The notes under the pieces: generated by a model
The model's database searches: none
What the model saw: only the letters and a program-made list of their open reading frames with translations
What the model was told of the DNA's origin: nothing
In this document: positions 3,043-25,986 of the stretch, one piece after another
Layout of the letters: each line of letters opens with the position of its first letter
Position numbering within the stretch: the first letter of the stretch is position 1
Program-made: the position numbers and the translations under genes
Virus record (IMG/VR): IMGVR_UViG_3300022468_000843
Length of the DNA stretch: 32,230 nucleotides
From: an uncultured virus (IMG/VR IMGVR_UViG_3300022468_000843)
Taxonomy: Duplodnaviria; Heunggongvirae; Uroviricota; Caudoviricetes
Strand: one strand, 5' to 3'

Positions 3043-4551
3043 TTATTCAGCGGTGAACGGACGCCACTTGGCGTTGCTCGGCAGGATGTTCTTGATGAAG
3101 CCGTGGTGCTTCGGCTTCGTGATCCGCAGGTACCCGAACAGGAACTGGAACCACGAATACTGAGGCACGCCACCGATACCAAACGGCAGCGGAATCTTGG
3201 TCATCGGCTGGAACTGGCGCCATCCGATGGCGTCCGAACCGGTCGACAGATTCAGCACAGGCACCATCACCGTACCGGGGATGTCGCGGTTCTGGTCGGT
3301 GTAGGTGGTCGTCGCGCCGGTCTTCTTGATCACGCGCACCAGACGGAAGTCGTTGGTGGCGTTCGTGCCGTCCTGGCGGCTGCGATAGATCGCATAGCCA
3401 GTCTCGGTGCCAGAAGCCGACTGGCTGATCGTCAACACAGCGTTCTTGCCGGCGGCAATCGCGGTCTGCGTGGACTTCACCACTTCGGACAGGCCCTTGC
3501 CGGTGCCGTCGATGGCGGCAACAGCGTAGTAGTAGTTGCCGGCGCGGGGCGCAGTGAAGCGCGACGCGGTGTCATTGGCGGTTGCGTTGACGGCAACACC
3601 CACGGGCTTGATGGCAGCGTTGCTGACGGCGATGGCGGCGTTGTTCACTTCGAACGGATAAACCATGGGGTTTTCTTCGTCCTGGATGAACGTGTCGAGG
3701 TTCGTCTTCAGGATACCGCTGGTGATGCGGATGCCTTCGACGTGGCCACCGAGCACGGGCGTGTTGCCACCGGCAGGGCTCCAGCGGTACGCAGGGTCGA
3801 GGTTCTTGTTCAGATCGACCTGCACCGAGTTCGGCAGGAACACGTCCGTGCTCTTGCCCCAGGAGCCGTAGCGGCTCGCGGCGGTGTTGATGCGCGAGAA
3901 CGGATCCACATCGACCAGGGTGCCACCGTTCAGATCGACGATGTTGTCACCGGACATATTGCCGGCAGCCACTTCCTTCTCGATCTGGCTGAAGATGCCG
4001 TCGAACTGCACGGGGCTGGCGTCCGAGTTGCCGTGGTACAGCGAGTAGTTCGCATCGGTCAGGAGCTGCAGGGCGCCGTTGCGCTCTTCCAGGGCCACAG
4101 GCTCGGCGATGTTCTTGCCCACGGTCAGGACGTAGCCGACCTGACGCAGGGTCATGAGGAACTTCACCATGCCGACTTCACGGCTGTACTCGCCCTGCGC
4201 GGAGCGGACAACACCCATCTGGGAGTTGAAAGCGCCACCCAGGAAACCACCGACGTTCGTCTGGCGGCTGTACTCGTCCACGATGTTCGTTGCGCTGGTC
4301 GAGGCCAGGCGGTTGAACAGCGTGAAGTGGTCGTTTTCCTGGATCGTGGTCTTCATCGCCGTGTCCAGCGACTGCACGCCCAGGGCGCCACCACCGGTGA
4401 GGGTGGCGACATCGGTCTGGTAGTTGGACGCTTCCAGTGCCTTTTTCAGGTCACCGAGCTGGTCCAGGGAACCGCCCGCAGAGCCACCAAGGGCCGGGGC
4501 GCCGCCGGGCGACATGCCGGCAAACTGTTGCAAAAGGGCTTGGGCGTCCAT
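3043..4551 (-). CDS. Major capsid protein
   Basis: 502 aa following protease and scaffold; GAAGGA RBS; N-arm KALEASNYQTD...GGGALGVQSLD and LYHGN...QFDGI motifs resemble SPO1/K-like capsid proteins; has an Ig/FN3-like insertion (YYYAVAAID...GLSE). Confidence 0.85.
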   Translation of the reverse strand: MDAQALLQQFAGMSPGGAPALGGSAGGSLDQLGDLKKALEASNYQTDVATLTGGGALGVQSLDTAMKTTIQENDHFTLFNRLASTSATNIVDEYSRQTNVGGFLGGAFNSQMGVVRSAQGEYSREVGMVKFLMTLRQVGYVLTVGKNIAEPVALEERNGALQLLTDANYSLYHGNSDASPVQFDGIFSQIEKEVAAGNMSGDNIVDLNGGTLVDVDPFSRINTAASRYGSWGKSTDVFLPNSVQVDLNKNLDPAYRWSPAGGNTPVLGGHVEGIRITSGILKTNLDTFIQDEENPMVYPFEVNNAAIAVSNAAIKPVGVAVNATANDTASRFTAPRAGNYYYAVAAIDGTGKGLSEVVKSTQTAIAAGKNAVLTISQSASGTETGYAIYRSRQDGTNATNDFRLVRVIKKTGATTTYTDQNRDIPGTVMVPVLNLSTGSDAIGWRQFQPMTKIPLPFGIGGVPQYSWFQFLFGYLRITKPKHHGFIKNILPSNAKWRPFTAE

Positions 4552-4592
4552 GCTTTTTCCTTCGGGGTATGGATGGGGTTGCTGGGGGGGGG

Positions 4593-5237
4593 TTAAGCGA
4601 GGGCAACCTTCTGGAGAATGCCCGCATCGATGGGCCAGCCGTTACGCAGGCATGCATCGATCGTGTTCAGTTCGGTGCCGGAGATCTTCTTGGCGGCGTA
4701 GGCCGCGTTCGACTTCGCCAGCAGCTCACCAGGGGTGATGTTGCCGTCTTCCGCACCCGAGGACTTGGCGAGCACATCGGCAACGCCGGGCTTGTCGGCG
4801 ATCGTGACCAGCGTCTTGCGACCGCGGCCCTGACCAGCCAGCGTGCGGACTTCGGCCTGCAGCGACTTGATCAGCTCGTTCTGCTTGCCCATCGCGCCGG
4901 CCATCGTGGTCAGCGCCTTGGCGAGAACGCCATCGGTGCTGTCCTGGCGGGCCATGAGCGACTTCACCAGCTCGGTGGCGTCGATCATTTGGTTTCCGTC
5001 GGCGTCAGCGCCCAAGGACTTACCGAAGTCCTGGCCATCTTCATCGCCTTTGACGTCATCGTCGTCGCCATCCATGACGGGGGCGTCAACGCCAGAATCG
5101 GCGGCGGCAGCGGCCACAGTCTTGTCGTCGGCGGCAGCGGGTGCGGCCTTGGCGAGCGTGTCCGTGCCTTCCGCGACTTGCGCGAGCGACTTCAACAGCT
5201 CGTCGAAGTTGCTTTCGTTGTTTTCAACACTCATCAT
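4593..5237 (-). CDS. Capsid scaffolding protein
   Basis: Acidic, coiled-coil-like, located between protease and capsid genes; eight [L/F]-x-K-[S/A] repeats. Confidence 0.7.
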   Translation of the reverse strand: MMSVENNESNFDELLKSLAQVAEGTDTLAKAAPAAADDKTVAAAAADSGVDAPVMDGDDDDVKGDEDGQDFGKSLGADADGNQMIDATELVKSLMARQDSTDGVLAKALTTMAGAMGKQNELIKSLQAEVRTLAGQGRGRKTLVTIADKPGVADVLAKSSGAEDGNITPGELLAKSNAAYAAKKISGTELNTIDACLRNGWPIDAGILQKVALA

Positions 5238-6139
5238 TTACTCCGTTTGAGTTTGGAAAGACCTGATTTCAAATCGCTGAGAAAGCGATCCACCCACTCA
5301 GCCGCCTCATCGTGAGACAGCGAGTATTTCCCGGCGCAATACTCCACCAGGCTCGCCGGCGAACCGACCTTTGCGGCGCCCGTTTTCACGTCGCCAGAAA
5401 GGCGGTTGCGGAAATCGAAATACGAATGCGGAGCGCCCGTATCGAGCGACTGCGCACCGAAGGCGGCGCCTCCGGTTTTGCCTGCCGCATCGGTCGCGTA
5501 GCTGGCCTCCAGGGCCTTCGCCATGTCGAAGCCGCCATCGGCGCTCCAGGACTTTGCGAGGACGCCGAACGGGATGGTCTGGATGCCACCCACGTGCTGA
5601 TTCACGGGCTGCTGGCTGATAGCGACATTGGTCCAGCGCACGCCACTGACCACGCCGTACTTGGCGCCCGACTTTTCGTCGATGCGGATGGACTTCGCCA
5701 GGATCTTGCCGCCGACGCTGGGGTACCACTTGCGGGGCGGGTTCAGCTTCGTCATGCTGTCCCACACCATGTTCGCGTTTGCGGCCAGTTCGGTATCACC
5801 GGTGTAGAGCTGCGCCTTCACGAACGTGGACGCGCCATCAACGCGCACCTCAACAGGCGAGCCGACTTCCCACAGATCGGGGCGGTCGATGCCGTGCATC
5901 TTCGCGACGGCGGGCATCGACTTGTGGTCCAGGTCGATGTTGCCGAACTTGAGGTAGTGGTCGGCCGACTCTTCCAGAGCCTTCGCGAGCACCACGTCGT
6001 TCTGGAGGTCGCGAGCTTCGCGGGATGCCTCCAGGTACACGAACCGCTTGTCGCCCTCTTGGGCGGGCGTAGCCTTCAGCATCATTTCGATGCTGAGGTA
6101 TTCGGGGATGCCCGAAAGGAGCTGCTCGCCTGGATTCAT
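5234..6139 (-). CDS. Prohead (maturation) protease
   Basis: HK97/herpes-type pattern ASREARDLQNDVV...NIDLDH...PSVGG...VAISQQPVN with candidate catalytic His and Ser; positioned before scaffold and capsid. Confidence 0.75.
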   Translation of the reverse strand: MNPGEQLLSGIPEYLSIEMMLKATPAQEGDKRFVYLEASREARDLQNDVVLAKALEESADHYLKFGNIDLDHKSMPAVAKMHGIDRPDLWEVGSPVEVRVDGASTFVKAQLYTGDTELAANANMVWDSMTKLNPPRKWYPSVGGKILAKSIRIDEKSGAKYGVVSGVRWTNVAISQQPVNQHVGGIQTIPFGVLAKSWSADGGFDMAKALEASYATDAAGKTGGAAFGAQSLDTGAPHSYFDFRNRLSGDVKTGAAKVGSPASLVEYCAGKYSLSHDEAAEWVDRFLSDLKSGLSKLKRSK

Positions 6140-6161
6140 GCCCCAATGATGCCGTCACGAC
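6140..6161 (-). promoter_or_regulatory. Late-promoter motif for the protease-scaffold-capsid operon
   Basis: GTCGTGA-CGG-CATCAT-TGGGGC-ATG. Confidence 0.7.
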
Positions 6162-6191
6162 TTTTTCGCGGCGGGCTCCATCGGCGAAATT

Positions 6192-6449
6192 TTAGGGGGC
6201 CAGGGCCTTGCGAGCTTTGGCGATGACCACGTCCAGTTGTCCGCGCTCGGACACCAGATCGGTGTAGCGCTGCTGGGCTGCATCGCTGGCGCCATCAGCA
6301 CCAGGACGCGCGCGCTCGATGGCTGCGCAGACCTCGGCGTGGCGCTTCTCGGCCGCGGCCAGAATGTTGCGCTCGGTGCGCTCGGTCTTGGCGGCAAGGT
6401 CGTGCAGGTCGCCCAGGCCGGCGCGGGCTTTCTCGATATGTCGCTTCAC
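6192..6449 (-). CDS. Hypothetical helical protein (85 aa)
   Basis: GTG start overlaps the upstream TGA (GTGA); it is the C-terminal part of listed ORF 6192..6758. Confidence 0.6.
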   Translation of the reverse strand: MKRHIEKARAGLGDLHDLAAKTERTERNILAAAEKRHAEVCAAIERARPGADGASDAAQQRYTDLVSERGQLDVVIAKARKALAP

Positions 6450-6679
6450 CGGCGCACCTCGGCAAGGCAAACCGCGCGCAGACCGCTGCTCTGGATGTTG
6501 TAGCAGCGCCCGGGGTCGCGATGAGCCATGGCCAGGCAGTAGGCGCGGGCGTCGGGGCTTCCGACGCCGTAGCATGCACTGGCGGCGGTTGAGGCGACGG
6601 CGGAGTGAGGCGCCACCAGCAAAGCGGCGGCGTAGGCGATCAGAAGGATGATGGTGCGCATCGGGCGAATGTAGCTCAA
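6446..6679 (-). CDS. Small secreted Cys-containing protein
   Basis: Signal-peptide-like hydrophobic N-terminus, then two C-Y-x(10)-C-L-A repeats. Confidence 0.65.
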   Translation of the reverse strand: MSYIRPMRTIILLIAYAAALLVAPHSAVASTAASACYGVGSPDARAYCLAMAHRDPGRCYNIQSSGLRAVCLAEVRR

Positions 6680-9600
6680 AACAACCCCCCTTGTTCCGCC
6701 TGAGCGGCCGAGCGCCGGGCGTGGATTGCCCCGGCCACGCCGGAGTCGTCCAAGCCATCCAGGGGCGACGCCATCATGTCCTTGAGCGCGTACTTCTTCT
6801 CCAGGCGCTCGCGGCTGCGGCGTTCCTCCTTGTGGTCGGCCTCCAGGTCGATTAGCTCGATGCCGTTCTTCTGTCCAATCCGGTCGATTCGCGCATTTCG
6901 CTGGCTGTGGGTCTTGGCCGTCATAGGCACATCGTGCTGGATCAAATATTGCCCAGATTGCAGGTTCATGCCCACGGCGCCTGCGTCGGATGCTATCAAA
7001 ATATCGGCTTCCGGCGCCCCCGTTTCCGGGTTGAACATCCGGCGCTTGCGATCTTTGTCCTTGGCGCTGTCGCTGCCGGTGATGACCACGACGCGCTTGC
7101 CGGCCTTCTCCATCGCCGCCTGGTACTGGGCCACGCTCTCGCGGTTGCGCGCGAAGATCACACCCTGCTTGCCGGGGCGCGCAGCCACCATCGATACGGC
7201 GTGCTGCACCTTCGCGTTGTCCGGGTGCGCGTTGATGATCCGATTGATGGCCGACGACTTGAGGATGCCGACCGACTTCTGCAGGTTGGCGGCGATCGCC
7301 TCGTGCTCGGACTCCGGCACGCCCCCGAACGAACCAGGCGAGATGCCGCGCGCGGCTTCCACATCGACCTTGCCGGCGCGCTCGGCCAGGCGGGCGCGCG
7401 CCAGGTGCTTGTCCAGCTTGCCCAGGGCCTCGTGCTGGCCTGGCGACAGCTTCACCACCTCACGCTTGCGCGAGCGCGCCACGTCCGGGGTGATGGAGGT
7501 CGGGAACACGTAGCGCGCCATTTCCCGCTGCAGGGCCTGCTTGCTGGCAATGGTGTCAGCGCCGTACCGCCGCATGAAGGCAGCCCGATCGCCGTAGCGC
7601 TCCGGGTCCATCTTCTGCAGCATCGAATGAATTTCGCTGGCGTCGTTCTTAATCGGGTCGCCCGACGCATACACGTGGTACGGCGTGTGGTGGCCAACGG
7701 CCTCCAGCACGTTCGACAGGCTGGAATTTTCCTTGCCGGCGCGGTTCAGGGTGTCGTGCGCCTCGTCGATGAACGAGGCGTCGAAGTTGATGCCCTCTTT
7801 CTCCATCACGCCAGACACCCAGGCCTTGCGCTCCAACGGCGACATGGTCCCGAGCTGGGCGGTCATCGCGGCCTCATCGACGCCGGCGTGCTTGGCCCCC
7901 AGGTGCACCATGTCATCCCGGAACGACTGGTGGGTCATCACACAGATGTGCGTGCCGGGATCCTTGTAGGCTGCGATGCGTTCGGCCTGCGAGGCGCCCG
8001 GCTGAATGTGGGTCTTGAACTTGCCAGCTTCGAGCAGGCGCAACGCCTCGCCGTTGAACTGGCCCTGCACGATGCTAGGCACCATCATGATCGACCGCTT
8101 GACCTTGCCCAGGCCGGCCAGGTGCGCGTGCGTGCCCAGCATGATGTTTGTCTTGCCGCTGCCAGCGCCGGCAGCGAGCGCGACGCGCTTGTTGGCTGCC
8201 ACCAACTTAACGGCGCGCTGCTGGGCGGCGTATTTGCCGGACATGGACACACCCCAGAGCTTCGTGGGCTGGCCGGGTTTGAAGTTGGCCCCGACGTGGC
8301 CCATCATGGCCGCGATTTGCCGTTCTGCGGCATGCCCCAGGGTATGGCGCTCATCGGCCCCCAGTGAGGCTGGCTGACCCCCTGCTGAGGCATCCGGCAC
8401 ATCCTCGCTGGAGAAGAACCCCATCTGCGCCTGCTCGAAGGCGGCCTGCTGCTGCTTGGCGGCCTCGATCTTGTCGTTGACGCCGCCCGATGCGTACTTG
8501 CCCCCCACCCGCTCGCGCAGGCGATCAATGAGGGCCTTGTCCTTTGCCATGCGCGCGGCGCGGGCGTCGGAATCCACGGCGTCGAGGTGGTCCAGGTTGT
8601 TGCGGATGACGCGCTTGCCCAGCTTCAAGGGCGAGCCCGGATTCAGCTTATTGTGGGCATCGACAAACGTCTTTGCCATCTTCGAGCGGATCACGTCCTG
8701 AACGGCCTCGTACGCGCGCTCGTTGCCGCCCATGGTTTTCAGGTACTTGCCCCAGGTCAGGCTGCTGGCGTTCAGCTTTTCCGCCAGGCCGTCGCGGTGC
8801 GCTTTCCAGTCCTTCCAGTCGGGGTTCGGCACGGTGTCGCCGAACATATCCGACGTTTCCTTTTCCGGCTCGGCGGCGTGCGCTTCCTCCAGCTCCTTGC
8901 GCAGCGCGCCGGCGGCCTCGTCCTCGCGGGCGATGTGCTGGTAGAAGTGCTCGCGCAGGGCGGCCTGGTCCTTGGGCGTCAGCTCTCCGATCTGCTTGTA
9001 GGCGGCAGTGCCCTCCGGCGTTTCGGCCAGAGCACGGTGCAGCGCATCGACGGAGTGCTGGTCAACGGCGATTTTCTGGCGGTTGAGCGTGGTGCGATCG
9101 CCGCCCAGCGAGGCGACGTGGTCATCGGCGTACTTGTCGAAGGTGTCGGACAGGGCCTCGGCCCGCTGCTGCTTGCCGTCCGCGTCCTTGAGCGGCGCCA
9201 CCGCATCGAGCGCGGCGCGGTATTCCTCGGTGCGCTCGATGCCGACCTTTTGAAAGAAGTCCGCGGACTGCACGTCCGACAGAATATCGGCCGGGGCATC
9301 GCCATCCGCCGCGCGCGCGCCGATGTAGGAGCGCAGGGACGCCTGCAGGTCGTCGCCAGCCTGGAACGGCTGCGCCAGGCGCTCGGCCACGCCAGGCTTC
9401 ACGTCCATGACCAGGTCGGGGCGGTTGGCGACACCCAGGGGCAGCCAGCCGTCCTCGTCCTGGTCGCCGCGGATGATGCTGAGATTGCGGCTCACCTGCG
9501 CCACATCCTCGCGCGCAACGGGGCTGGCCAGGCGGGACATGCCAGCGGGCGTCACCGTGAGGAACGTGTCGCCTCCGACCTTCTCCAGGGAGTAGTCGCC

Positions 9601-11220
9601 GGGCTTGAGGCCGATGGCGCGCACCTGGCGGATCGCCTGGTCAGGCGCCGTCTTGCCCAGGGACACCTGGAAGTCGCCGGTACCGGGCGCCTTCATGGCC
9701 ATCACCAGGGCGGCATTCGCCTCCATTTCACCCAGGGACTGCCCCAGGATGCGCTGGGCGTCACCCACGCAGGCGCGCCGGCGGGCGTTCAGCTCCTGAG
9801 CCACGGCCAGGTCGGCGCCGTTGGTGGCGTCCTCGGACACCTCGATGGCCTTGGCCGCATCCGAGAGGTCGCGGGCCTTCTTGAGGGCTTCGGTGCTGGC
9901 GGCCATGTAGTGGTTCATGTGCCAGTCCTGGATGCCGGCTGCCACGTGGGCGACCTCGTCCGGCGGCAGGTCGGCGTGCACGCGGCGCGCGAGCACCTGC
10001 GCGGCGCCAGCGATACCCAGCACGTCCACCACGCTGCGATCGACCAGGGCATCACCACCGACGGCCAGCGCCAGGGCGTTGATGCTGTTGTACGCGCCCA
10101 CGCCGATGTGGCCACCCAGGGTTTCCGTCGGGTTGCCGCCGGCGATCTTGCCCACCTCGGACAGGAAGGCGACGGTTTGCGCGGTGCGCAGATCGCCCTC
10201 GACGGCCTTGCGCGCGGCGGCATCCAGGTCGGCATCGTCGCTGGTTTCCAGCACGAACGCCTTGGGCTCGGTGGACGCCTTGTCCACGTCGGCGTTCGCC
10301 TCGCGCGCTTGGCGCTCGATTTGCTGCAGGCGCTTGCCCTCCTTCACCAGCTCGAGCGCATCCTTTGCGCTCAGCAGGCTGGCGTCGGCCTTCGGGGCGG
10401 CGGGCTCCTTGATGCCCTCCAGCTCCTTTTTCAGGAGGTCGGCGGCAGCGCCGCGGGCAAACGCAGACTTGCGCTGCTCGTCGGTCATGCCGGCCAGCTT
10501 CACCTGCATGGCCTCGGCCGCCAGCGATTCCTCGTTCAGGCCCGCCTTTTCGGCCCGCCCCTTGTAGTCCGCCTGGAAGCCCAGGCCCGAGCCGACCGCC
10601 TTCACCGGGTCGAGGTCGTTCACGGACAGCACGTCCGGCGAGCTCGAAAACAGCGGCACCTCGCCCACGCCAGCATCAGCGCGCGCGCCGGCGTCGTTGA
10701 CCAGCTTCTCGCGGCTCTGCTTGATCACATCCTTGGCGCGCTGCAGTAGGGCTTTGTGGTGTTTTTCCCGCACCTTGCCCAGGGCCTTGTCGGACAGGTG
10801 CGCGTAGTCTTCCTCGGGGAATTCGAGATCCTCTGGTGACCACCCGGCCTTTTTCGCGACGGCCTCGATGACGCCCCGCTCGGCGGCCTTGCGCTGCTTC
10901 TGGATTTCCTCTCGCGCCTCCTGCTTGGCGCCATGGATGCCGGCTGCTTTGTCGGCGGCCGTCTGCTCCTTGCGGGCGGCCGCGCGCTTGGCCTGGGCAG
11001 TTTTGGCCTCGGCCTTGTAGTCCGAGTGCGACTTCACGCCGCGCAGGCGTAGATGGTTCAGCGAGCCGCCGGCGCCGCCGATGACCTTTGCGCTGCCGTC
11101 GGACTGGGGCTGGATGAGCACAGCCTGCCCCTTGCCGGTACCGCCGGGGTGAACTGTGATCCACCTGGCGTCTGGCGGGATGGCGTCGGCCTTGATCAGC
11201 AGGGTCGGAAATTTGGGCAT
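6676..11220 (-). CDS. Large SNF2/SF2 helicase-domain protein (DarB-like, putative virion cargo)
   Basis: Motif I AAGAGSGKT, motif II IDEAH, motif III ASGDPIKN, motif V SDAGAVGMNLQ, motif VI QRNARIDRIGQ; about 1000-aa helical N-terminal region. Confidence 0.85.
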   Translation of the reverse strand: MPKFPTLLIKADAIPPDARWITVHPGGTGKGQAVLIQPQSDGSAKVIGGAGGSLNHLRLRGVKSHSDYKAEAKTAQAKRAAARKEQTAADKAAGIHGAKQEAREEIQKQRKAAERGVIEAVAKKAGWSPEDLEFPEEDYAHLSDKALGKVREKHHKALLQRAKDVIKQSREKLVNDAGARADAGVGEVPLFSSSPDVLSVNDLDPVKAVGSGLGFQADYKGRAEKAGLNEESLAAEAMQVKLAGMTDEQRKSAFARGAAADLLKKELEGIKEPAAPKADASLLSAKDALELVKEGKRLQQIERQAREANADVDKASTEPKAFVLETSDDADLDAAARKAVEGDLRTAQTVAFLSEVGKIAGGNPTETLGGHIGVGAYNSINALALAVGGDALVDRSVVDVLGIAGAAQVLARRVHADLPPDEVAHVAAGIQDWHMNHYMAASTEALKKARDLSDAAKAIEVSEDATNGADLAVAQELNARRRACVGDAQRILGQSLGEMEANAALVMAMKAPGTGDFQVSLGKTAPDQAIRQVRAIGLKPGDYSLEKVGGDTFLTVTPAGMSRLASPVAREDVAQVSRNLSIIRGDQDEDGWLPLGVANRPDLVMDVKPGVAERLAQPFQAGDDLQASLRSYIGARAADGDAPADILSDVQSADFFQKVGIERTEEYRAALDAVAPLKDADGKQQRAEALSDTFDKYADDHVASLGGDRTTLNRQKIAVDQHSVDALHRALAETPEGTAAYKQIGELTPKDQAALREHFYQHIAREDEAAGALRKELEEAHAAEPEKETSDMFGDTVPNPDWKDWKAHRDGLAEKLNASSLTWGKYLKTMGGNERAYEAVQDVIRSKMAKTFVDAHNKLNPGSPLKLGKRVIRNNLDHLDAVDSDARAARMAKDKALIDRLRERVGGKYASGGVNDKIEAAKQQQAAFEQAQMGFFSSEDVPDASAGGQPASLGADERHTLGHAAERQIAAMMGHVGANFKPGQPTKLWGVSMSGKYAAQQRAVKLVAANKRVALAAGAGSGKTNIMLGTHAHLAGLGKVKRSIMMVPSIVQGQFNGEALRLLEAGKFKTHIQPGASQAERIAAYKDPGTHICVMTHQSFRDDMVHLGAKHAGVDEAAMTAQLGTMSPLERKAWVSGVMEKEGINFDASFIDEAHDTLNRAGKENSSLSNVLEAVGHHTPYHVYASGDPIKNDASEIHSMLQKMDPERYGDRAAFMRRYGADTIASKQALQREMARYVFPTSITPDVARSRKREVVKLSPGQHEALGKLDKHLARARLAERAGKVDVEAARGISPGSFGGVPESEHEAIAANLQKSVGILKSSAINRIINAHPDNAKVQHAVSMVAARPGKQGVIFARNRESVAQYQAAMEKAGKRVVVITGSDSAKDKDRKRRMFNPETGAPEADILIASDAGAVGMNLQSGQYLIQHDVPMTAKTHSQRNARIDRIGQKNGIELIDLEADHKEERRSRERLEKKYALKDMMASPLDGLDDSGVAGAIHARRSAAQAEQGGLF

Positions 11221-11242
11221 CGCCCAATGATGAAGTCACGAC
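11221..11242 (-). promoter_or_regulatory. Late-promoter motif for the helicase gene
   Basis: GTCGTGA-CTT-CATCAT-TGGGCG-ATG. Confidence 0.7.
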
Positions 11243-12967: not shown

Positions 12968-13043
12968 TGGTTGCGATGGCTGGACTCGAACCAGCGACCT
13001 CCGGGTTATGAGCCCGCCGAGCTACCAACTGCTCCACACCGCA
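12968..13043 (-). tRNA. tRNA-Met(CAT), initiator (fMet) type
   Basis: 76-nt cloverleaf TGCGGTG...CTCATAA...GGTTCGAGTCC...CATCGCAACCA with encoded CCA, three consecutive G-C pairs in the anticodon stem and A11-U24; has U1-A72 instead of the usual C1xA72. Confidence 0.92.
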
Positions 13044-13763: not shown

Positions 13764-14263
13764 AACATTGCTCCTATCCACTCACCCGGCTGGGTGATGA
13801 CCATCTTGTTGCTTTTCGACCTGTTCATTCGCCTCGGTATCACCTGGCAGTTATTCCAAACATGCAGGCCGCTGGCTTCCTTGGCCTTCACAGGGATCAT
13901 GTGATCCGCCTGCCACGCAAAGCCAGTAGCAAGCGATCGTGCGACGCTTAGGCTCATCGCCTCCTGCCACACGAAACAATCCAGCTCGCCGAACCAGCAC
14001 GGAACAGAGCGCTTCACGTTTTCATGCCGGACTCGTGCTGCCGCCTTGAAGCCGGAGGGATCCTGCGCGTATCGGCGAGCCTGTTTTGCCCTGGCGTTTG
14101 CGCGCCTTTTTTCTATGTTTTCGGCATAGTAACGACGCTGACGCTCGCGGCTTTTTTCGAGATTTTCGGCGTACTTCTCTCGCTGCGCTGAATTCAGGGT
14201 GTCCCTGTTATTCAGCCAGTAACGGCGGTTGTACTCGCGCGCGGCGTCTACATTGGCGCTCAT
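13760..14263 (-). CDS. HNH endonuclease (homing type)
   Basis: WQADHMIPV...SGLHVWNNCQVIPRRMNRSKSN; basic helical N-terminus; ATGA overlap with the portal stop. Confidence 0.85.
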   Translation of the reverse strand: MSANVDAAREYNRRYWLNNRDTLNSAQREKYAENLEKSRERQRRYYAENIEKRRANARAKQARRYAQDPSGFKAAARVRHENVKRSVPCWFGELDCFVWQEAMSLSVARSLATGFAWQADHMIPVKAKEASGLHVWNNCQVIPRRMNRSKSNKMVITQPGEWIGAML

Positions 14264-15987
14264 GGCTCCACCGAGAAAACAGGCAGCCCGAAGGACTTCT
14301 GCATGTCCGGGCCGTTGCCGTCGTCACCATCGGGGCCAGCGGGCCCGCCAGGGCCGGGCTGACCACCGCCGAAGGGCGGAGCACCTCCGCCCTCTTCATC
14401 GCCGCCGTCGGCCCCGGGAGGGCCGCCGTTGGGGCCGGGTTGACCTGGCGTGCCGTAGTCCTCGCCTGCGGCCTGCTGGCTTTGCATGTAGATGCCCATC
14501 AGCGGCTGGTACAGCGGGGCGTCCGCCCAGTCTTCCTTGATTTCTTCCTTGCCCATGGCCTTGCGGGCTTCGTTCCAGGTGCTGGTGGTCTTTTCCTTGT
14601 CCCAGCGCGTGGCGGGATCTTCCTCGTCCAGACCGGTCCAGCGGAAGCAATACTTCTCGCCGAACTCCGACACGATGTAGTCGGAAAACAAGTCCTCGTA
14701 GTGCGCCAGCAGCGGGCGCAGGCCCTTGTCCTTCGAGTTGACCAGCTTCTCTTCGGTGTCCGAGCCGGACAGCGACGAGGTGCCCGCGGTGAACGACTCG
14801 AAGTTGATCTCGTCCGGCGCGATGCCGTAGATCGCGCAGATGATCGACGTGAGGAACGTCATCCACTTGGCGAACATGATCTCGTTCACTTCGACGCCGA
14901 AGTTTTCAAACGAAGCCTTCGACTCCTGGTCCTTCGAAATCATCACCGGGAGCGACCACGCGTTGTTGATGCCGCGCACCATCGCGTTCCAGTAGCGACG
15001 GAAGGACGCCAGGTCGTTCTGGTCGTAGTTGCCGGACAGGTGCAGCATGCCCTTCGGGATGCTGTTCTTGTCAAAGTAGCTGGTGTTGTAGGTGAACGCG
15101 TTCAGGAAGCCGGTCACGGCGCGCACCAGCAGCTCGGGTTCGGCCAGGCCATACCCTCCCACCAGGACGTCCGTGCGCGGGTTGCGCGGCACGTAGATCA
15201 GATCGTCGAAGGTGTAGGCGGCGCGGATGTTTCCATCGACCACCTGCAGCGCGAAAATCTCGTCCTCATCCCGGTAGCCCTGGTCGCTGGCCAGGCGGAT
15301 CGTTGCACCGTCCACGGCATAGAAGCCGTCAAGCCCCAGGGACTTGTCGCGCTTGTATTCCGTCTCGATCGGGGCGCTGTCCATGGTCAGCGTGTCGCGT
15401 ACCGACTTCGCCATGAACTGCGAAAAGTTGTCCCGGCGCAGGCGCGCGCGCTGGCGCGGGTTGCGCTCCCAGCCGTTGTTCGTGAAGAAGCCCTGCAGCA
15501 GGCTGACGGTTTGCTGCTCGTCCTTGCCCAGCTTGGCGTTCGCATCCTTGAGGGCGATCTGGAAGCCGGGGCCGGTACCGCCGCTGTTGGGGCGCAGGAA
15601 CCGCTGCACCTGGCGCACGCGGGTCATGACCACGGCGCTGAGCACGGGCGTCTGGTCGACCATTCCGCGCAGCATGTCGAAGTTCATGCCGGACCAGCGC
15701 TCGCGCCACTCGCCCATCGAGTTCCCATAGCTGTCGTTCAGCCAGACCGACTGCATGCCGGGCTTGCCTTCCTTGATCGCCTTGCTCGGGAACGGCACGA
15801 CGTTCGGCTTTGACAGCGCCTTGTGCATCTCTTGCTCTTGGTACTGCTCCTGCATGAACTGCACGATCGGCAGCATGTCGGGCACGCTGGACGGCATGGC
15901 GGCGGCTTGCGCCTCAGCCATGGCTTGCGCGCGCTCGTCACCAGGCGCCGAGCCATTGAAGGCGGTTGTAAGTGCAGTTTCAGCCAT
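14260..15987 (-). CDS. Portal protein
   Basis: Follows the terminase; motifs FYAVDGATIRL, LIYVPRNPRTD...GYGLAEPE, YFDKNSIPKGML and TWNEARKAMG are typical of phage portals. Confidence 0.9.
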   Translation of the reverse strand: MAETALTTAFNGSAPGDERAQAMAEAQAAAMPSSVPDMLPIVQFMQEQYQEQEMHKALSKPNVVPFPSKAIKEGKPGMQSVWLNDSYGNSMGEWRERWSGMNFDMLRGMVDQTPVLSAVVMTRVRQVQRFLRPNSGGTGPGFQIALKDANAKLGKDEQQTVSLLQGFFTNNGWERNPRQRARLRRDNFSQFMAKSVRDTLTMDSAPIETEYKRDKSLGLDGFYAVDGATIRLASDQGYRDEDEIFALQVVDGNIRAAYTFDDLIYVPRNPRTDVLVGGYGLAEPELLVRAVTGFLNAFTYNTSYFDKNSIPKGMLHLSGNYDQNDLASFRRYWNAMVRGINNAWSLPVMISKDQESKASFENFGVEVNEIMFAKWMTFLTSIICAIYGIAPDEINFESFTAGTSSLSGSDTEEKLVNSKDKGLRPLLAHYEDLFSDYIVSEFGEKYCFRWTGLDEEDPATRWDKEKTTSTWNEARKAMGKEEIKEDWADAPLYQPLMGIYMQSQQAAGEDYGTPGQPGPNGGPPGADGGDEEGGGAPPFGGGQPGPGGPAGPDGDDGNGPDMQKSFGLPVFSVEP

Positions 15988-19592: not shown

Positions 19593-19614
19593 GGCGCTAG
19601 TTTCGCATCACGAC
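19593..19614 (-). promoter_or_regulatory. Late-promoter motif
   Basis: GTCGTGA-TGC-GAAACT-AGCGCC-ATG. Confidence 0.7.
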
Positions 19615-19615
19615 G

Positions 19616-21345: not shown

Positions 21346-21348
21346 CCT

Positions 21349-24300
21349 TTACGTTGGGAGAATGACGGCTTCAACGATATGCGTGCCGTGTTGACCGAAA
21401 CCATCGCTGTCCGGGCCCTTTTTCACAGCCACGATCAGCATGCGGGTGCCGGGCGGCAGGATCATTTCATCCTCGCTCGCATGCTTGGACAAGGCGCCGC
21501 CACCAGGCTTTGACCCAGGACCAACCCACAAACCCTTCACCCCGGGGCCAACGTGCAGCTTGAGCTGGATGTTGCCACTCCAAGACGACGGCCGGATCGA
21601 GGTGGACATGATCGCGGGCTCCTGCAGGATTTTCCCACTGGACGCGAGCATGGCCTCCAGATCGGCGCCGTGCAGGTTGATTTTACGCGACAGCACCGTG
21701 CCAGGCGCAATCTCGTGCCCAAGAGTTTTCAGCGCCTCGCCGGCGGACTTCGCTGCGCCCGTCGGATTGCCAGCCCAAAGCGAGCTGTTCATGGCGTGGT
21801 ACGAGCTGCCGGTGTAGCTCTGCACGGCCTGTTGCTGGGTGGCCGGCATCTTGGCGATAGAGGCCTGCGCCGCGGGCGAGTAGGTCTGCTGGCTGAGCGT
21901 GCCGCCTTGCGACGAGTGCGTGATCTTTGGTGGCAGCGCCAGGTCTTCGAGTTTCACCGTGCCAGGGGTGCCGAGCACGATGTACTTGCCCAGCTTCTGC
22001 GCGGCTGCGCTCGATGGCGCGCCGTGGTGCGCGGGATAGGCTGCGTTCAGCGAGTGCAGCGGGTGCCCACCATCAAACCTGAACCGCTTGGGCGGGTTCA
22101 TCTGGTAGTTGATTTCGTTGATGACCTGCTGCGCGTAGCCCTTGATGTGCTGGCTCGGATGTTCGAGCACCGGCTTCGAGCCCGACACCGCGCCCGTGTC
22201 CTTGTCGTACACGTTGGCCTGCAGGGACTTGATGGCGTCCAGGTTGCCGGTTTTGGCAGCCTGGTAGATTGCCTGCGCCGCTTCCTCGTTGGCCTTGTTC
22301 AAGAACTCCTTGCTGGACGGCCCGCTCTTGCCAGAGCCGCCCCAATTCAGGAACGAAGGCGGCGCGCTGACCTTGGACGGGTCGAAAACAACGGCCTTTT
22401 TCTTTTTTGCCGCCTGCGGATAGCGCTTCAGGAGGTCAGCCTTGCGCGCGATCAGCGTCTCGGCCAGCTTCGCCTTTTGATCCTGTGTGCCAGGACCGTG
22501 CTGGTTCACCATCGCGCGAATGGTCACGTCGCTGATTGCAGCCACCTTGGCAACCGACGCAGTGATGTCCGCCTTTGTCATCTTGCCGAAAACGGCCGCG
22601 GCGTGTGGGTTTTTGGCCGCATCGCGCAGAGTGTCGATCTCGTCGACCTTGACGCCGAAGGGCTTCTTTTCGCCCTGGGCGCGGTACTCCAGCGATCCGC
22701 CAGCATCGACCCGGTGGGCCTTGCCGTCGGGGCCCACCTGAAGATTGTCGAGCGACATGCCGACCACGTCCCAGTTGCCCAACCAGGCATCGACAGCGAA
22801 GCCGGAATGCACGCCGTCGACCTTGGCCAAAGCTGCCGCGCTGGACGCCTTTTTGATATCGGTCCATTTGGTGGCGATGCCGACCTTGCCGCCCTTGCTC
22901 ACCAGGATGGCGTCTTGCCCGGATAGGCCAGCCAGGCCGTACAGCTTGGCGGCGAGCACTTCGGACTTTGCTGTGGCCTCGTCGCTGGGGAACTTGCAGT
23001 ACCACTCCTGGCCGGTCGGATCCTTGAACTTGCCGCCCGGGTTCGAGCCGCCCTGCCCGCCGGTCTGGACCCACGAGTCCATGGAAGGCAGGCCGTTCGC
23101 CCCAACGGTGAACGCGGCAGGCTGCGTGGCGGCTGGCTTGGCGGCGGGAATGTCCGAGGCCTTGAAGGCGGGATCGAGCTTTTGCATCGCCGCAAGCGGC
23201 GGGGCGTCGTACCCGGCTGCGACCATCTTCTTCAACAGATCTGGCAGAGAGGCGCCGATCAGCGGATCCGGGTCGTCGTCAAAATCGAAGTGGAACTCCG
23301 CCTGTCCTTCCTCCGCGTTCCAGGCGATGATCCCGACATCGTTGGTCAGCGAAGGGTGGCCGGACATACCCATGTCGCTGGCGGCGTAGCTCCACCCGCC
23401 CATACCGCCCAAAGGAGCCACCTGGCCAGCGCCCATGGCTGCCAGCAGCTTGTCGGCCAGCTTTTGCGTGATGGGCATCTTGCCGGCGTTGGACGCCTTC
23501 CATTTTTGGATAGCGGTGGCATCACCAGCCAGGGCGGCATGTTTGAGCACCTTGGCGAACTCCGACTTCGAGTAGCCGGAGGTTTTGGCCTTGATGTTTT
23601 CCAGATCGCCGGGGGTCAAGGCCTTTGGACCCTGGCCCACCTTCACCCAGTGCCCATCTTTGAGCACCAGCATGCCGTCGGCGCCCTGCTTGGTGTCGCC
23701 TTCCTTGGGGCCCGTTTCAGGCGCACCAGCGGACACCGTGACCTTGTGCCCAAAGATGGCGCCCTTGGACTCATAGCCCTTCTTCAGCTTTTCCTGCTTC
23801 AGCGCCCCGGCGGCACTTTGCGCCGCATCTACGGTGGGAAAGCTCTTGACCGTTTTTTGCTGGGTACCACCGATCTTCCCGTACTCGGTGACCATGTCGG
23901 CGCCACCCGAGGCGTTGGGGGCAACATACACCGACCAGGACTTGTTGTGGCCGCCCGTGGTGTTGTGCAGGATGAACTTGGGCGCGGTGACGGTCTTGGG
24001 GGCGGCGGAGGCAGCCGCTGGCGCTGGTGCCGGCGCGGGCGCGGGCGCAGGGGTTGGGGCCGGCGCGGGCTTCACCGGTACCGCTGCTGTGGCGCCAGGC
24101 GTGCCCAGGGCAGCCAGGGCGGTCTGCGCGGTGAGCACCTGCTTCTTGGCATAGGTCTGCTTGGCCGCGCCCTTGGCGTCGATGAACGCCTGCAGGCCGG
24201 CCTTGTCGCCCGCGAAGGCCATGGCATGGATCTTGTCGAGCGCGGCGTTGTGGCTCTTGGCGTTGGTGTTTTCCGCCGGCAGCTTGAGCTTGAACCAGGG

Positions 24301-25986
24301 GATGGATTGCAGGTTCTGGAGCTGCTGGGCGTTGAGTCCGCCGGATTCTGGTGTGACAACGGGAGTCGCAGCCGGCGCGGGTTGTGGGGCGCTTTCCGGT
24401 TTCGGCTGTGACAGCTTTGCCTGCATGAGCGACAGCAGCAGCTTGGCATGCACCAGCGGCTTGTAGGTTTCGTTGCCTGGGGTATCGAGGTCGTTGATGA
24501 AACCCTGCAGGCCGCGCACATCGCCGGCGAGCGCGAAGTTGTTGGCCTTATTGACGTTGGCCTCGGCGCTGGAGCCGATGAAACCGATGAAGGGCAGCTC
24601 ATACTCGGTCAGGGCGCCTGGCTTGGCTTCCGCGTCCGGCATCTGCACCACCAGCGACATACCGAACTTCTTGGAGAGCACCTTCTCGGCAGCCATCGCC
24701 TGGGCGCCAAACCCGGCGGCATCGAACGCGTCCTGCTCGTCCTCGCCAGATTCCAGCGCGGCCACGAACTTGTCGACCTTCGGACCCATGTCTTCGGTGA
24801 GCACCGCCTTCAGCGGGGCGGCCATGGGAGCGTAGGGGCTGGCCTGCCCGCCCTGCTTCACCCAGTGGCCATCCTTGAGCACCAGGGTGCCGCCATCGGC
24901 GCCGGGCTTGGTGTCGCCCTCGTTCGGGCCGCTGGGCGCGCCAGGCTTGGAGGACGAGGCGGGCGGTACGCCGGTACCATCGGACCCGCCACCGGTCGCG
25001 TGCGCCACCGCGGCATCGTGCAGTGCGAGCAGCTTCTTCGAGTTGGCTGTCTTGCCGAGCCAGGTGTTCGGTACCTTACCCTTTGCGTTGGGCTTGAGGC
25101 CGTCGGCCTTCATGTCCTCCAGGACGACGCCGTTGCCAGCGTGCCCGTGGTCGATGACCTTCTGCGCGACATTTTCGTAGTGCTTCTTCACGCCGACGGT
25201 TTGCTTGCCTTCCTCGAAGGTGGGCATGGTCAGGGGGCCGGCGGGGGCAGCGGCCGGCGCCGGCGCCTTGGCCTGCAGCTCCGCCAGCTTCTTCTGCGCG
25301 TAGGCCACGATCTGCGGGTGCTCGGGGTTGTTCTTGGCCACGTTGGACAGGAACTCGACGTCACCCTCGGCGGCCTTGTCGTCCAGCGTGTTCATGACGT
25401 GCTGCGCCAGCGGGGCGAGCGGACCAGGCTCCTGCAGGCCATCAGTCACGGGCGGGGCGGCCTTGGGCGCCAGGTGCTCAGGCAGGCCAGACGGGTGGGG
25501 CACGGTCGGTACCGACTGCAGGGCGGCGTGCGTGCCCGCCTTCTGGCCGGGCGCAACCTGGTGCTTTGAGCCGTGCAGCCCGAGCAGGTGGTTCGCGATC
25601 TTGGCGAGCTTCTGGCCGTAGGTGTTCGAGCCGTAGGACACGGCCAGCATGCCGGTGACGTTGCCGGCGTCCGAGAGCTGCTGCAGGTTCGCCAGCGCCT
25701 TGTTGTACGACGGCGCGTTGGTGTTGGTGTCGGGCAGCTTGAGCGCGTCCCATTGCTCCTGCGTGAAGTGCGCAACGGCAGCATGGTCGCCGCCAGACTT
25801 CGGGTGGGCCGCGATCGGCGCGCCCTTGGGGGCGGGCTTGTCCTTGTGGAGTTTGTGCCACCGGCCGTTCAGCAGGTAGTAGCCACCCTGGTGCTTATAC
25901 ATCCCGTCGTGGTGGTGGGCCGCTTTGAGCAGAAGACCGCGGGAAACAACCAGGCGAGCGTGTGGAGTGGCGGCATTTTGCGTCAT
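21349..25986 (-). CDS. Giant multidomain effector: repeats + WGR-like + PI3/4-kinase/HipA-like + C-terminal R-S-E ADP-ribosyltransferase
   Basis: ART: SYTGSSYHAMNSSL, VLSRK, MSTS, EDEMILPPG. Kinase-like: GGSNPGG, WYCK, SEVLAAKLY, DAWLGNWD..G..DN, VDAGGSL. WGR-like: HNKSW...EYGKIG...EKLKKGY. Confidence 0.85.
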   Translation of the reverse strand: MTQNAATPHARLVVSRGLLLKAAHHHDGMYKHQGGYYLLNGRWHKLHKDKPAPKGAPIAAHPKSGGDHAAVAHFTQEQWDALKLPDTNTNAPSYNKALANLQQLSDAGNVTGMLAVSYGSNTYGQKLAKIANHLLGLHGSKHQVAPGQKAGTHAALQSVPTVPHPSGLPEHLAPKAAPPVTDGLQEPGPLAPLAQHVMNTLDDKAAEGDVEFLSNVAKNNPEHPQIVAYAQKKLAELQAKAPAPAAAPAGPLTMPTFEEGKQTVGVKKHYENVAQKVIDHGHAGNGVVLEDMKADGLKPNAKGKVPNTWLGKTANSKKLLALHDAAVAHATGGGSDGTGVPPASSSKPGAPSGPNEGDTKPGADGGTLVLKDGHWVKQGGQASPYAPMAAPLKAVLTEDMGPKVDKFVAALESGEDEQDAFDAAGFGAQAMAAEKVLSKKFGMSLVVQMPDAEAKPGALTEYELPFIGFIGSSAEANVNKANNFALAGDVRGLQGFINDLDTPGNETYKPLVHAKLLLSLMQAKLSQPKPESAPQPAPAATPVVTPESGGLNAQQLQNLQSIPWFKLKLPAENTNAKSHNAALDKIHAMAFAGDKAGLQAFIDAKGAAKQTYAKKQVLTAQTALAALGTPGATAAVPVKPAPAPTPAPAPAPAPAPAAASAAPKTVTAPKFILHNTTGGHNKSWSVYVAPNASGGADMVTEYGKIGGTQQKTVKSFPTVDAAQSAAGALKQEKLKKGYESKGAIFGHKVTVSAGAPETGPKEGDTKQGADGMLVLKDGHWVKVGQGPKALTPGDLENIKAKTSGYSKSEFAKVLKHAALAGDATAIQKWKASNAGKMPITQKLADKLLAAMGAGQVAPLGGMGGWSYAASDMGMSGHPSLTNDVGIIAWNAEEGQAEFHFDFDDDPDPLIGASLPDLLKKMVAAGYDAPPLAAMQKLDPAFKASDIPAAKPAATQPAAFTVGANGLPSMDSWVQTGGQGGSNPGGKFKDPTGQEWYCKFPSDEATAKSEVLAAKLYGLAGLSGQDAILVSKGGKVGIATKWTDIKKASSAAALAKVDGVHSGFAVDAWLGNWDVVGMSLDNLQVGPDGKAHRVDAGGSLEYRAQGEKKPFGVKVDEIDTLRDAAKNPHAAAVFGKMTKADITASVAKVAAISDVTIRAMVNQHGPGTQDQKAKLAETLIARKADLLKRYPQAAKKKKAVVFDPSKVSAPPSFLNWGGSGKSGPSSKEFLNKANEEAAQAIYQAAKTGNLDAIKSLQANVYDKDTGAVSGSKPVLEHPSQHIKGYAQQVINEINYQMNPPKRFRFDGGHPLHSLNAAYPAHHGAPSSAAAQKLGKYIVLGTPGTVKLEDLALPPKITHSSQGGTLSQQTYSPAAQASIAKMPATQQQAVQSYTGSSYHAMNSSLWAGNPTGAAKSAGEALKTLGHEIAPGTVLSRKINLHGADLEAMLASSGKILQEPAIMSTSIRPSSWSGNIQLKLHVGPGVKGLWVGPGSKPGGGALSKHASEDEMILPPGTRMLIVAVKKGPDSDGFGQHGTHIVEAVILPT

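Follow-up and report, generated by a model that had tools for sequence, protein, structure and literature searches.

One short motif, [LMIF]-x-K-[AS], runs through a block of phage head genes in the uncultured caudovirus record IMGVR_UViG_3300022468_000843. It is found in the capsid, scaffold, portal and protease encoded there, and also close to the N-termini of four enzymes of the same block: a helicase, an ADP-ribosyltransferase (ART) protein, a NUDIX hydrolase and a DUF6900 protein. The window, that is, the whole stretch of DNA that was analysed, spans 32,230 nucleotides (nt; 32.2 kb) and is the right part of a 55-kb viral contig, with a G+C content of 63-70%; its minus strand carries all of its genes. 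The open reading frames (ORFs) were assigned to families by Pfam and PHROG profile searches, and the features are collected in Table 1, where, as in the text, an arrow marks a predicted cut.

The window is the head-gene block of a myophage of ~90 kb, from the group of Bordetella PHB04, Aeromonas ST4 and Pseudomonas Dolphis. In its capsid protein it shares 62-75% identity with phages ST4, PHB04, Dolphis, Jeremy, ECML-606-1, phiT5282EW and fHe-Yen8-01. Of these relatives, ST4 is an Aeromonas phage, PHB04 a Bordetella phage, and Dolphis and Jeremy are Pseudomonas phages; Escherichia, Enterobacter and Yersinia phages are also among them. The capsids of SPO1-type Bacillus phages are ~26% identical to that of the window, and tblastn with the window capsid matches 216 Bacillus, 55 Listeria and 13 Staphylococcus phage records. 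The sequences of relatives were taken from 79 IMG/VR loci around capsid homologues.

Table 1. Genes, predicted sites and sequence boxes of the window (aa, amino acids)
Feature	Position	Strand	Basis or remark
ParB-methyltransferase	27209-28699	-	first of the listed genes in the direction of transcription
WGR + C-terminal ART protein, 1545 aa	21349..25986	-	Pfam WGR, ADPrib_exo_Tox; phrog_3895, phrog_802 (Alt-like)
ART leader, residues 1-21, ends LLK↓A	25921-25986	-	homologues
169-aa protein	between ART and NUDIX genes	-	
NUDIX hydrolase, 263 aa	20052..20843	-	Pfam NUDIX
NUDIX leader MTEDLVK↓A, then HVKGHVRGSTYVRPYE	20763-20843	-	homologues
DUF6900 protein, 301 aa	18687..19592	-	Pfam DUF6900
DUF6900 leader MTKKLVVDASMLAK↓S, then hairpin motif QVAAFTRKDGVMVQAH	19494-19592	-	homologues
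TerL, 876 aa	16018-18648	-	
Portal protein	14260..15987	-	Pfam Phage_portal
Portal site MHK↓A, 54-57	15817-15828	-	kept in 10/12 homologues covering the position
Portal site MQK↓S, 562-565	14293-14304	-	kept in 14/14 homologues
HNH	13760-14263	-	
tRNA-Met (CAT)	12968-13043		between HNH and MuF-like genes
Minor head (MuF-like?) protein, 402 aa	11680..12888	-	gene position, no profile match
MuF-like site IYK↓A, 22-25	12814-12825	-	homologues
1514-aa protein, C-terminal SNF2/DEAD helicase	6676..11220	-	Pfam Helicase_C, DEAD, SNF2-rel_dom at residues 998-1449; phrog_62
Helicase leader MPKFPTLLIK↓A	11188..11220	-	homologues
Small ORF, 85 aa	6192..6449	-	
Prohead protease, 301 aa	5234..6139	-	phrog_1028; fold match
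Capsid-N-terminus copy in protease, aa 206-236, MAK↓ALEASYATD..TGG..G.QSLD	5432..5524	-	BLASTP
Scaffold protein, 214 aa, 8 sites	4593..5237	-	site count, homologues
Major capsid protein, 502 aa, SPO1/A511/K type	3043..4551	-	phrog_752, E 4e-92
Predicted capsid maturation site L35-K-K37↓A38	4438..4449	-	conserved alignment column
GTCGTGA box	6155..6161	-	begins 22 nt upstream of protease ATG
GTCGTGA copies (helicase, MuF-like, portal, TerL)	start at 11242, 12909, 16009, 18670	-	
GTCGTGA copies (DUF6900 protein, ART protein, TerS-like)	start at 19614, 26008, 29456	-	

A lysine site in the head proteins

The motif was counted as [LMIF]-x-K-[AS], and the number given with a site is that of its first residue. 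An earlier reading of the same DNA, made from the letters alone and called here the sequence-only reading, had listed a series of such sites, and every one of them is present at the residues it gave. The scaffold bears eight (LLKS14, LAKA28, FGKS71, LVKS90, LAKA105, LIKS122, LAKS156 and LAKS173) and the protease six (MLKA20, LAKA51, LAKS147, LAKS194, MAKA206 and FVKA106), of which FVKA106 and the second LAKS come in addition to the four listed before. The capsid has LKKA at 35-38; the portal has MHKA54 and MQKS562, plus MAKS192, which was absent from the list. Single sites near the N-terminus are IYKA22 in the MuF-like protein, LIKA8 in the helicase, LLKA19 in the ART protein, LAKS12 in the DUF6900 protein, IEKA5 in ORF 6192..6449 and, numbered from the ATG at 20843, LVKA5 in the NUDIX protein. 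As had been claimed, TerL, HNH and the methyltransferase lack an N-terminal site.

Would a proteome rich in Ala, Lys and Leu yield such a series by chance? Each protein was shuffled 2000 times with its composition preserved. The scaffold has 8 sites where 0.66 are expected, and none of the 2000 shuffles reaches 8; the protease has 6 against 0.85 (P=0.0005), and the portal 3 against 0.75 (P=0.04). There is no whole-protein excess in the capsid (1 against 0.63), and TerL and the methyltransferase are also shuffle-like, as are the helicase and the ART protein. In favour of chance are these shuffle-like counts, and also three sites that are not conserved and were rejected as chance occurrences: IEKA of ORF 6192..6449, where the motif is found in 0 of 26 homologue N-termini; MAKS192 of the portal, whose P1' residue varies among homologues; and LNKA19 in the TerL of phage ST4, a site that the window TerL does not have.

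The homologues speak the other way. Scaffolds that are 26-51% identical keep 5-9 sites in 65 homologues, with a mean of 6.75 against 0.61 in shuffles, and 64 protease homologues keep 3-7 sites, with a mean of 5.03 against 0.60. In the alignments of both families the Lys columns are conserved in position, and 40% of all Lys residues in the scaffold family sit inside the motif. The preference is also specific: each scaffold has on average 6.77 sites of the form h-x-K-[AS] (h, hydrophobic), as compared with 0.06 for h-x-R-[AS], 0.15 for h-x-E-[AS] and 1.82 for the reversed motif. The fuller consensus reads [E/T/D]-[L/M]-[A/I/V]-K↓[S/A]-L. The scaffold itself has no family match in Pfam or NCBIfam. 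Given the excess in scaffold and protease (P <=0.0005), the positional conservation in 64-65 homologues, and the rarity of the Arg, Glu and reversed versions, chance is already contradicted for the core set of sites, and as an account of the motif it is extremely improbable. Enrichment over an Ala/Lys-rich background, whose lack the sequence-only reading had named as fatal to its own idea, is thus present in these two proteins.

The single capsid site is invariant. All 64 distinct N-termini have the motif at one and the same alignment column (62 LxKA, 1 MxKA and 1 LxKS), and the column is kept down to 43% identity. A search of PDB sequences with the capsid returned SPO1 Gp6.1 (9vel, E 1e-21) and the phage K-type major capsid protein (MCP; 5lii, E 8e-10, and 9row), and DLKK↓ALEAS of the window aligns with DALNK23↓ALEAG of SPO1, EDALK23↓SFTTGYG of A511 and EDVVK24↓SFQTGYG of phage K, all as read from the genomes. 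The PDB has the phage K-type MCP with 463 aa (5lii) and with 439 aa (9row), the second number being the first less 24, and the alignment numbering of 9row is what a chain beginning at Ser25 of the 463-aa protein would show. Since 9row is 24 residues shorter and is numbered in this way, the deposited mature protein starts directly after Lys, and this start aligns within 1-2 residues of K37↓A38 in the window. The A511 capsid is reportedly cut at Lys23/Ser24, a result attributed to Loessner and Scherer in 1995; what backs this cut here is the genome sequence and the chain length of the phage K protein in the PDB, and literature searches found no printed statement of the capsid cleavage site of A511, K or SPO1. 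On the strength of the alignments, the removal after Lys of an N-terminal capsid propeptide of 37 residues is predicted for the window phage.

Which enzyme would make this cut? By sequence alone, the best Pfam match of the protease is Peptidase_S78_2 at E 0.1, and there is no relevant PDB sequence match. An AF2 model built from a 30-sequence alignment (predicted local distance difference test score, pLDDT, 80) consists of a core at residues 24-180, a flexible or disordered linker at 181-233 and a helical C-terminal domain at 240-300. Its top Foldseek match is T4 gp21 (5jbl, E 9e-7, prob 1.0), followed by herpesvirus proteases, and to judge from the model the protease has the T4 gp21/assemblin fold. 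In the 30 sequences H72, S141, K22-A23, K196 and K208-A209 are invariant; H72 and S141 are the candidate catalytic residues. Of the conserved sites, K22↓A23 belongs to the N-terminus, and K196↓S and K208↓A to the disordered linker before the C-terminal domain; these positions suggest that the protease trims itself there.

The linker holds a further feature, a copy of the capsid N-terminus. Protease residues 200-249 and capsid residues 34-83 are 50% identical over 50 aa (BLASTP, E 1e-10). The common pattern, ALEAS.Y.TD....TGG.A.G.QSLD, follows directly after MAK↓A in the protease, and its capsid counterpart lies at aa 35-66 (window 4354-4449). The copy is kept across the protease family, and the same mimicry is found in A511 and phage K, where the protease's C-terminal part also copies the N-terminus of the mature capsid protein (FMK↓SWTTGHGTTPDTQVNAGALRRE in the protease, ALK↓SFTTGYGITPDTQTDAGALRRE in the capsid). 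Its role may be to anchor the protease in the shell where a capsid N-arm would otherwise sit, or it may be an extended mimic of the substrate.

The portal sites near the two ends are conserved (Table 1). In the MuF-like protein, a strict [ILMF]-x-K-A near residue 22 is kept in 17 of 18 homologues, and the remaining one has V at P3. No profile supports the 'MuF' label that the sequence-only reading gave this protein: it matches nothing in Pfam (E up to 10), NCBIfam or PHROG, and falls short of the Phage_Mu_F profile. The label rests on gene position, on the annotation 'putative minor head protein' in Mecenats66 and on an HPNCR motif.

Because of the invariant capsid site, its K↓S and K↓A homology to SPO1, A511 and phage K (with the start of 9row), the conserved scaffold sites and the fold of the protease, the motif is very probably the site of the prohead protease, as was proposed from the letters alone. 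A serine protease of the gp21/assemblin fold, acting through H72 and S141, would cut after Lys in [L/M/I/F]-x-K↓[A/S]. Inside the prohead, the capsid protein would lose 37 residues to this protease, the scaffold would be broken up at ~7 sites, and the portal would be trimmed at its two ends; the protease would also cleave its own N-terminus and the linker before its C-terminal domain.

Leaders on four enzymes

The same site closes a mostly hydrophobic leader of 7-21 residues at the start of the helicase, the WGR-ART protein, the NUDIX hydrolase and the DUF6900 protein. Placement at the N-terminus was tested on the automatic longest-ORF calls of the whole 55-kb contig, with the site starting within residues 1-25. 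The enrichment over background that the sequence-only reading had proposed as a check is present: 6 of 47 ORFs have such a site against 1.52 expected (P=0.004), and the count becomes 7 of 47 (P=0.0007) when the NUDIX protein is read from the start supported by its homologues. All of these ORFs are among the 15 from the ART gene to the capsid gene, with 0 in the 25 ORFs downstream of the capsid and 0 in the 7 upstream of the ART gene. In independently annotated relatives, the N-terminal site is present in 15 of 37 coding sequences from the upstream genes through the capsid, as compared with 1 of 39 on the tail side.

Most of the weight for the motif comes from its conservation in relatives. In the helicase, it lies no more than 16 aa upstream of an RWITV anchor in 31 of 31 distinct homologues, as compared with 99 of 2831 (3.5%) equally long control windows from these proteins, another figure that speaks against chance. 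All 13 recovered N-termini of ART homologues have a leader ending in h-x-K-[AS], most of them PRL-h-L-L-K-[AS]. The NUDIX leader is present in 14 of 14 full-length homologues and in phage ST4; in the AF2 model of this protein, residues 1-57 have pLDDT <50 and the core >85, and the leader is predicted to be flexible and accessible. The first ~50 residues of the DUF6900 protein match N-terminal stretches in several unrelated proteins of relatives, NUDIX proteins included. The unit common to the NUDIX and DUF6900 type is a leader-K↓[AS] followed by the hairpin motif H-V-x-G-Y-T-R-K-D-G-T-x-V-x-x-H. This motif has 25 distinct occurrences in the fetched loci: 19 have a strict site no more than 8 aa upstream, 4 have near-variants (LVLKA twice, LLLKT and LLIKG), 1 has its site 11 aa upstream, and 1 is a false match in a capsid protein. 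On the helicase, ART and InPase-type proteins, the leader is not accompanied by the canonical hairpin.

No Pfam match was found for the four leader regions at E up to 10, nor for the N-terminal half of the helicase. A side observation on the ART protein is that its best-conserved part, 67-77% identical in relatives, is neither the leader nor a recognized domain; it lies at aa ~940-1195 (window 22400-23160), between WGR and ART, and has no Pfam match even at E 1.

The tagged set of the window is paralleled in PHB04, whose leader-bearing proteins are an HD phosphohydrolase, the InPase-like gp028 (VGAVVLLKA...), the 2097-aa gp027, which bears the annotation DNA methyltransferase, and the helicase (MKPILFLKA...). 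A gene annotated 'Ulx-like anti-restriction' adjoins that of gp027, beside the helicase gene. The sequence-only reading had seen the motif at the N-termini of the four window enzymes and had proposed that they are packaged; its set is strengthened by conserved leaders on all four and by a shared upstream box on three, the helicase, ART and DUF6900 genes, and loses one member, ORF 6192..6449, whose homologues do not have the motif.

The box, GTCGTGA in its short form and GTCGTGA(Y)GC(R)A in its extended form, begins 22 nt before the ATG of eight window genes. All 13 copies of the contig are on the coding strand, and most of them precede an ATG by 21-23 nt; the copies beyond those in the window are in the tail-gene region, mostly just upstream of an ATG. 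Among relatives, 64 of 69 protease genes and 24 of 34 helicase genes have the box ahead of their start, as against 1 of 62 capsid genes and 0 of 35 scaffold genes; the capsid and scaffold genes use a Shine-Dalgarno site or translational coupling instead. The box could be a promoter or a translational element. That the helicase, ART and DUF6900 genes share this signal with structural genes supports their expression together with the head genes, as far as a sequence signal can indicate.

Taken with the leaders, these data make it likely that the four enzymes are loaded into the head and trimmed there. The leader would direct each enzyme into the assembling prohead and then be cut off, as happens to the capsid-targeting sequence (CTS) of T4. 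Whether the trimmed enzymes would then travel out together with the DNA and be active in the next cell infected is a separate matter: by analogy with phages that inject proteins, this is conceivable, with the odds slightly against it.

Another fate can be imagined, in which the head protease cuts the enzymes and no delivery follows: until the head is assembled, the leader would hold them inactive or tethered, or else it would label them for destruction, and their action would be confined to the producing cell. Conserved sites and the apparent co-regulation with the head genes are in keeping with such a fate, and nothing found here bears directly on injection. It is set against the fact that a prohead protease, such as T4 gp21 or HK97 gp4, is normally active only inside proheads. 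Furthermore, the gene slot that in relatives holds the 2097-aa annotated methyltransferase and the 'Ulx-like anti-restriction' gene recalls P1, in which DarB and Ulx are virion proteins according to passages of PMC11437467 and PMC9024508, and domains of the ART, NUDIX, InPase, Acb1 and Zeta types make up the repertoire that a portion of PMC5512222 predicts for injected polyvalent proteins. Enzymes that are cut and stay behind are, on this evidence, quite improbable.

Modules joined by the same site

In the relatives, the site is not confined to N-termini. Six longer helicase homologues (1578-2103 aa) carry it internally, at residues 84-401, and still directly before the helicase body. The helicase ORFs of L017, L018, L032 and L069 are built of an InPase-like domain, MIK↓[SA], a mini-module of ~27 aa (ITLIFPNGN...), L-x-K↓[AS] and the helicase body, whereas in PHB04 the InPase-like gp028 and the helicase are separate genes, each with its own leader. 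The window has no InPase-like domain. InPase domains of other phage lineages, collected with a polyvalent-protein query, have the site upstream in 0 of 34 distinct cases. The hairpin, in the form V-x-G-Y-T-R-x-D-G-T-x-V-x-x-[HY], also exists by itself: Ser-rich proteins (P0012-P0015 and P0018), taken to be bacterial, contain 3-6 tandem repeats of it without the Lys site, and one such protein bears a protein kinase domain. No Pfam family covers this motif. Because the site is missing from all 34 foreign InPase domains and from the tandem hairpins, the leader appears to be a lineage-specific addition and not a part of the domain that it precedes.

These observations also bear on the possibility that the site is real on capsid, scaffold, portal and protease, and that on the enzymes h-x-K-[AS] simply opens, as its first strand, a small conserved fold or binding element at the N-terminus; in that case these enzymes would be ordinary cytoplasmic late proteins, neither cut nor packaged. 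The contiguity of site and conserved hairpin in the NUDIX and DUF6900 proteins would be explained in this way, and so would the occurrence of hairpins outside any protease context, as repeats and in the kinase fusion; the packaging of the enzymes is, after all, inferred. Such a fold does not account for tandem hairpins that lack K-[AS], for leaders of the helicase, ART and InPase type that lack the canonical hairpin, for a site that brackets modules inside fusion proteins, for the absence of the leader from 34 of 34 InPase domains of other lineages, or for a leader region that is predicted to be disordered and not packed. It is therefore held to be unlikely, and the reading of the enzyme sites as cleavable leaders is retained.

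How far has the unit of leader and hairpin spread? A profile of this cassette, made from 25 sequences, was run against 1.84 billion representative proteins and matched the representatives of 1,831 protein clusters at E up to 0.001, and of 244 at E up to 1e-10; many of the proteins hold 2-11 copies, and polyvalent proteins are frequent among them. Pfam was applied to 52 of the best 150 cassette proteins, picked by rank and length. InPase was the family found most often (10/52), followed by ART-PolyVal (5/52), by PBECR3, NUDIX, Zeta_toxin and DUF6900 (2/52 each), and by LPD3, ddrB-ParB, Acb1, PolyA_pol, RadC+ADPrib_exo_Tox and Pkinase (1/52 each). No Pfam family was found in 25/52, and 3 further proteins of the sample had matches only below the curated cut-off.

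The polyprotein P0002 (locus L153) illustrates the arrangement, with four copies of the junction unit and the domains InPase, PBECR3 and LPD3. Its contig is of the same lineage as the window (portal 57%, TerL 47% and MuF-like protein 42% identical), and P0002 sits in the slot of the window ART gene, whose product matches the ADPrib_exo_Tox model and not ART-PolyVal.

With the same site at the domain joints of these long polyvalent proteins, the head protease of the relatives would also free the single domains. This leads to a wider proposal, which we put forward tentatively, with the odds somewhat against it: the head protease could be a general processing enzyme for polyvalent proteins, and the hydrophobic leader L-x-K↓[A/S], often with the hairpin motif, a portable cassette that is both an address for loading into the head and a joint at which to cut. 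Any enzyme might then be plugged in as injected cargo, alone or within a polyprotein.

A few other features of the window deserve a mention. The tRNA-Met gene is 93.5% identical to a tRNA-Met of Janthinobacterium phage Donnerlittchen. TerL has an extra N-terminal region (phrog_2 terminase match, residues 9-215) before its gpA-type ATPase (256-494). An ORF of 104 aa (13467-13781), with LAKS-AKY at its C-terminal end, is homologous to the N-terminus of PHB04 gp034 (493 aa) and may represent a split or shortened form of that protein. An ORF downstream of the capsid block, at window 2-832, of 637 aa and continuing upstream on the contig, has many Ala/Ser/Gly-rich tandem repeats of ~18 aa, GAY-x-VLS-x-V-x-AD-x-P; its product may be a fibre or decoration protein.

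Kindred systems and the weight of the evidence

The closest parallel is T4. The CTS of its internal proteins IPI-III and of Alt, removed by gp21, is a short N-terminal leader on unrelated proteins that ends in the site of the head protease, and the likeness extends to an ADP-ribosyltransferase as cargo (phrog_802, 'Alt-like', in the window ART) and to the fold of the protease. In the block studied here, too, short leaders stand on otherwise unrelated proteins (the helicase, ART, NUDIX and DUF6900 proteins, and the proteins of PHB04), and they end in the consensus of the capsid and scaffold sites. The site, however, differs. T4 uses [L/I]-x-E↓, while the window has Lys at P1 in h-x-K↓[A/S], with the Glu version at only 0.15 per scaffold, and in sequence the leaders bear no likeness to that of T4. 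The candidate cargo of the window phage also includes multidomain enzymes of 1500 aa, and its relatives use the site as a polyprotein joint. The system of the window would be a Lys-site variant of T4-style capsid targeting in another head lineage.

That head lineage can be assigned, by capsid homology and site alignment, to the SPO1/A511/K type. The Herelleviridae (SPO1 Gp6.1, A511 Cps and the phage K MCP) share the homologous capsid, the aligned Lys cut site and an abundance of h-x-K-S in the ORFs in the scaffold position: 11 [LIV]-x-K-S sites were counted in the ORF lying upstream of the SPO1 capsid gene, and 7 in its phage K counterpart. They differ in being phages of Gram-positive bacteria with genomes of 130-150 kb. 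We know of no report that Herelleviridae load enzymes by means of such leaders, and their genomes were not checked for it.

In the giant phages phiKZ and 201phi2-1, the prohead protease gp175 cleaves many head-internal proteins at a single consensus site, as established by mass spectrometry. Both the site and the lineage are different, and the processing in the window phage is predicted from sequence.

With P1, the likeness is functional only. The proteins of its Dar system (DarB, Ulx, DarA, Hdf, DdrA and DdrB) include large enzymes that are packaged in the head and released at infection, but its capsid protein is cut after Glu, at MLE↓SVAAEM. Unlike DarB, which is a methyltransferase-helicase, the window helicase protein has no methyltransferase domain in Pfam, and P1 is absent among the 13 phage records that this protein matches by tblastn at E 1e-5. 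With the cut after Glu, no h-x-K-[AS] leader on DarB and no tblastn match to the helicase, P1 was rejected as a relative at the sequence level, and membership of the window enzymes in the Dar system is not supported. Passages of PMC9024508 describe the N-terminus of DarB as an experimentally shown targeting signal of 30 residues, alongside the T4 CTS, and the precedents of T4 and P1 that the sequence-only reading had invoked are right as concepts, as far as these passages and those of PMC5512222 go.

The last of these papers deals with the polyvalent proteins (Iyer, Burroughs, Anand, de Souza and Aravind 2017, PMC5512222). In the portions that concern us, packaging is predicted, and processing by the proteins' own metallopeptidase domains is proposed; the words 'leader', 'linker' and 'capsid targeting' are absent from its text. 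The domain repertoire on the tagged proteins is the same (InPase, ART-PolyVal, PBECR3, LPD3, ddrB-ParB, NUDIX and Zeta toxin), and these proteins, too, are encoded among head genes. The window ART protein shows several domains in one polypeptide encoded with virion genes, with WGR, ADPrib_exo_Tox and large regions without a family match. The difference is that the joints described here carry the site of the head protease.

Several points weigh against the idea of a packaged and trimmed set of enzymes. Within the window alone, the enrichment is strong in the scaffold and protease and moderate at the N-termini. Whole-protein counts in the helicase (5 against 3.76) and in the ART protein (4 against 4.68) show neither excess nor depletion; since they match the background, the 7 internal sites must be either buried or cut. 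A few homologous leaders depart from the strict motif, with V at P3 or with T or G at P1'. In the NUDIX and DUF6900 proteins, K-[AS] abuts the conserved hairpin, so that its conservation could be partly structural, and downstream of the site the leaders of the helicase and ART proteins differ from those of the NUDIX and DUF6900 proteins. P1, the best experimental model for packaged anti-restriction enzymes, has no h-x-K-[AS] leader at the N-terminus of DarB or of the other Dar proteins. Lastly, the literature yielded no virion proteomics or N-terminal data for the window phage or for its relatives PHB04, Dolphis, Mecenats66, Touem01 and fHe-Yen8-01; the Mecenats66 paper contains no mass spectrometry. 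The leader idea itself was not met in print in the literature searches made, which is no claim that it is unpublished.

Examples of the few proteins that phages are known to inject along with their DNA, so as to disarm the host, are Alt and the internal proteins of T4, DarB of P1, and the RNA polymerase of N4. For the 'polyvalent' enzymes of uncultured phages, entry into the head and cutting have so far been prediction only. If the leaders work as proposed here, a single mass-spectrometry experiment on the virions of a cultured relative could test the idea, and the leader of 10-20 residues would be a candidate tag with which foreign proteins could be brought into these capsids, an approach already taken for T4 and P1. 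For uncultured phages, the repertoire of cargo, with its ART, InPase, NUDIX, Zeta-toxin, Acb1, PBECR and ParB-type domains, would become readable from sequence. And if the Lys-type site is indeed both address and joint, the injected arsenal of a whole phage lineage could be listed from its sequences alone.

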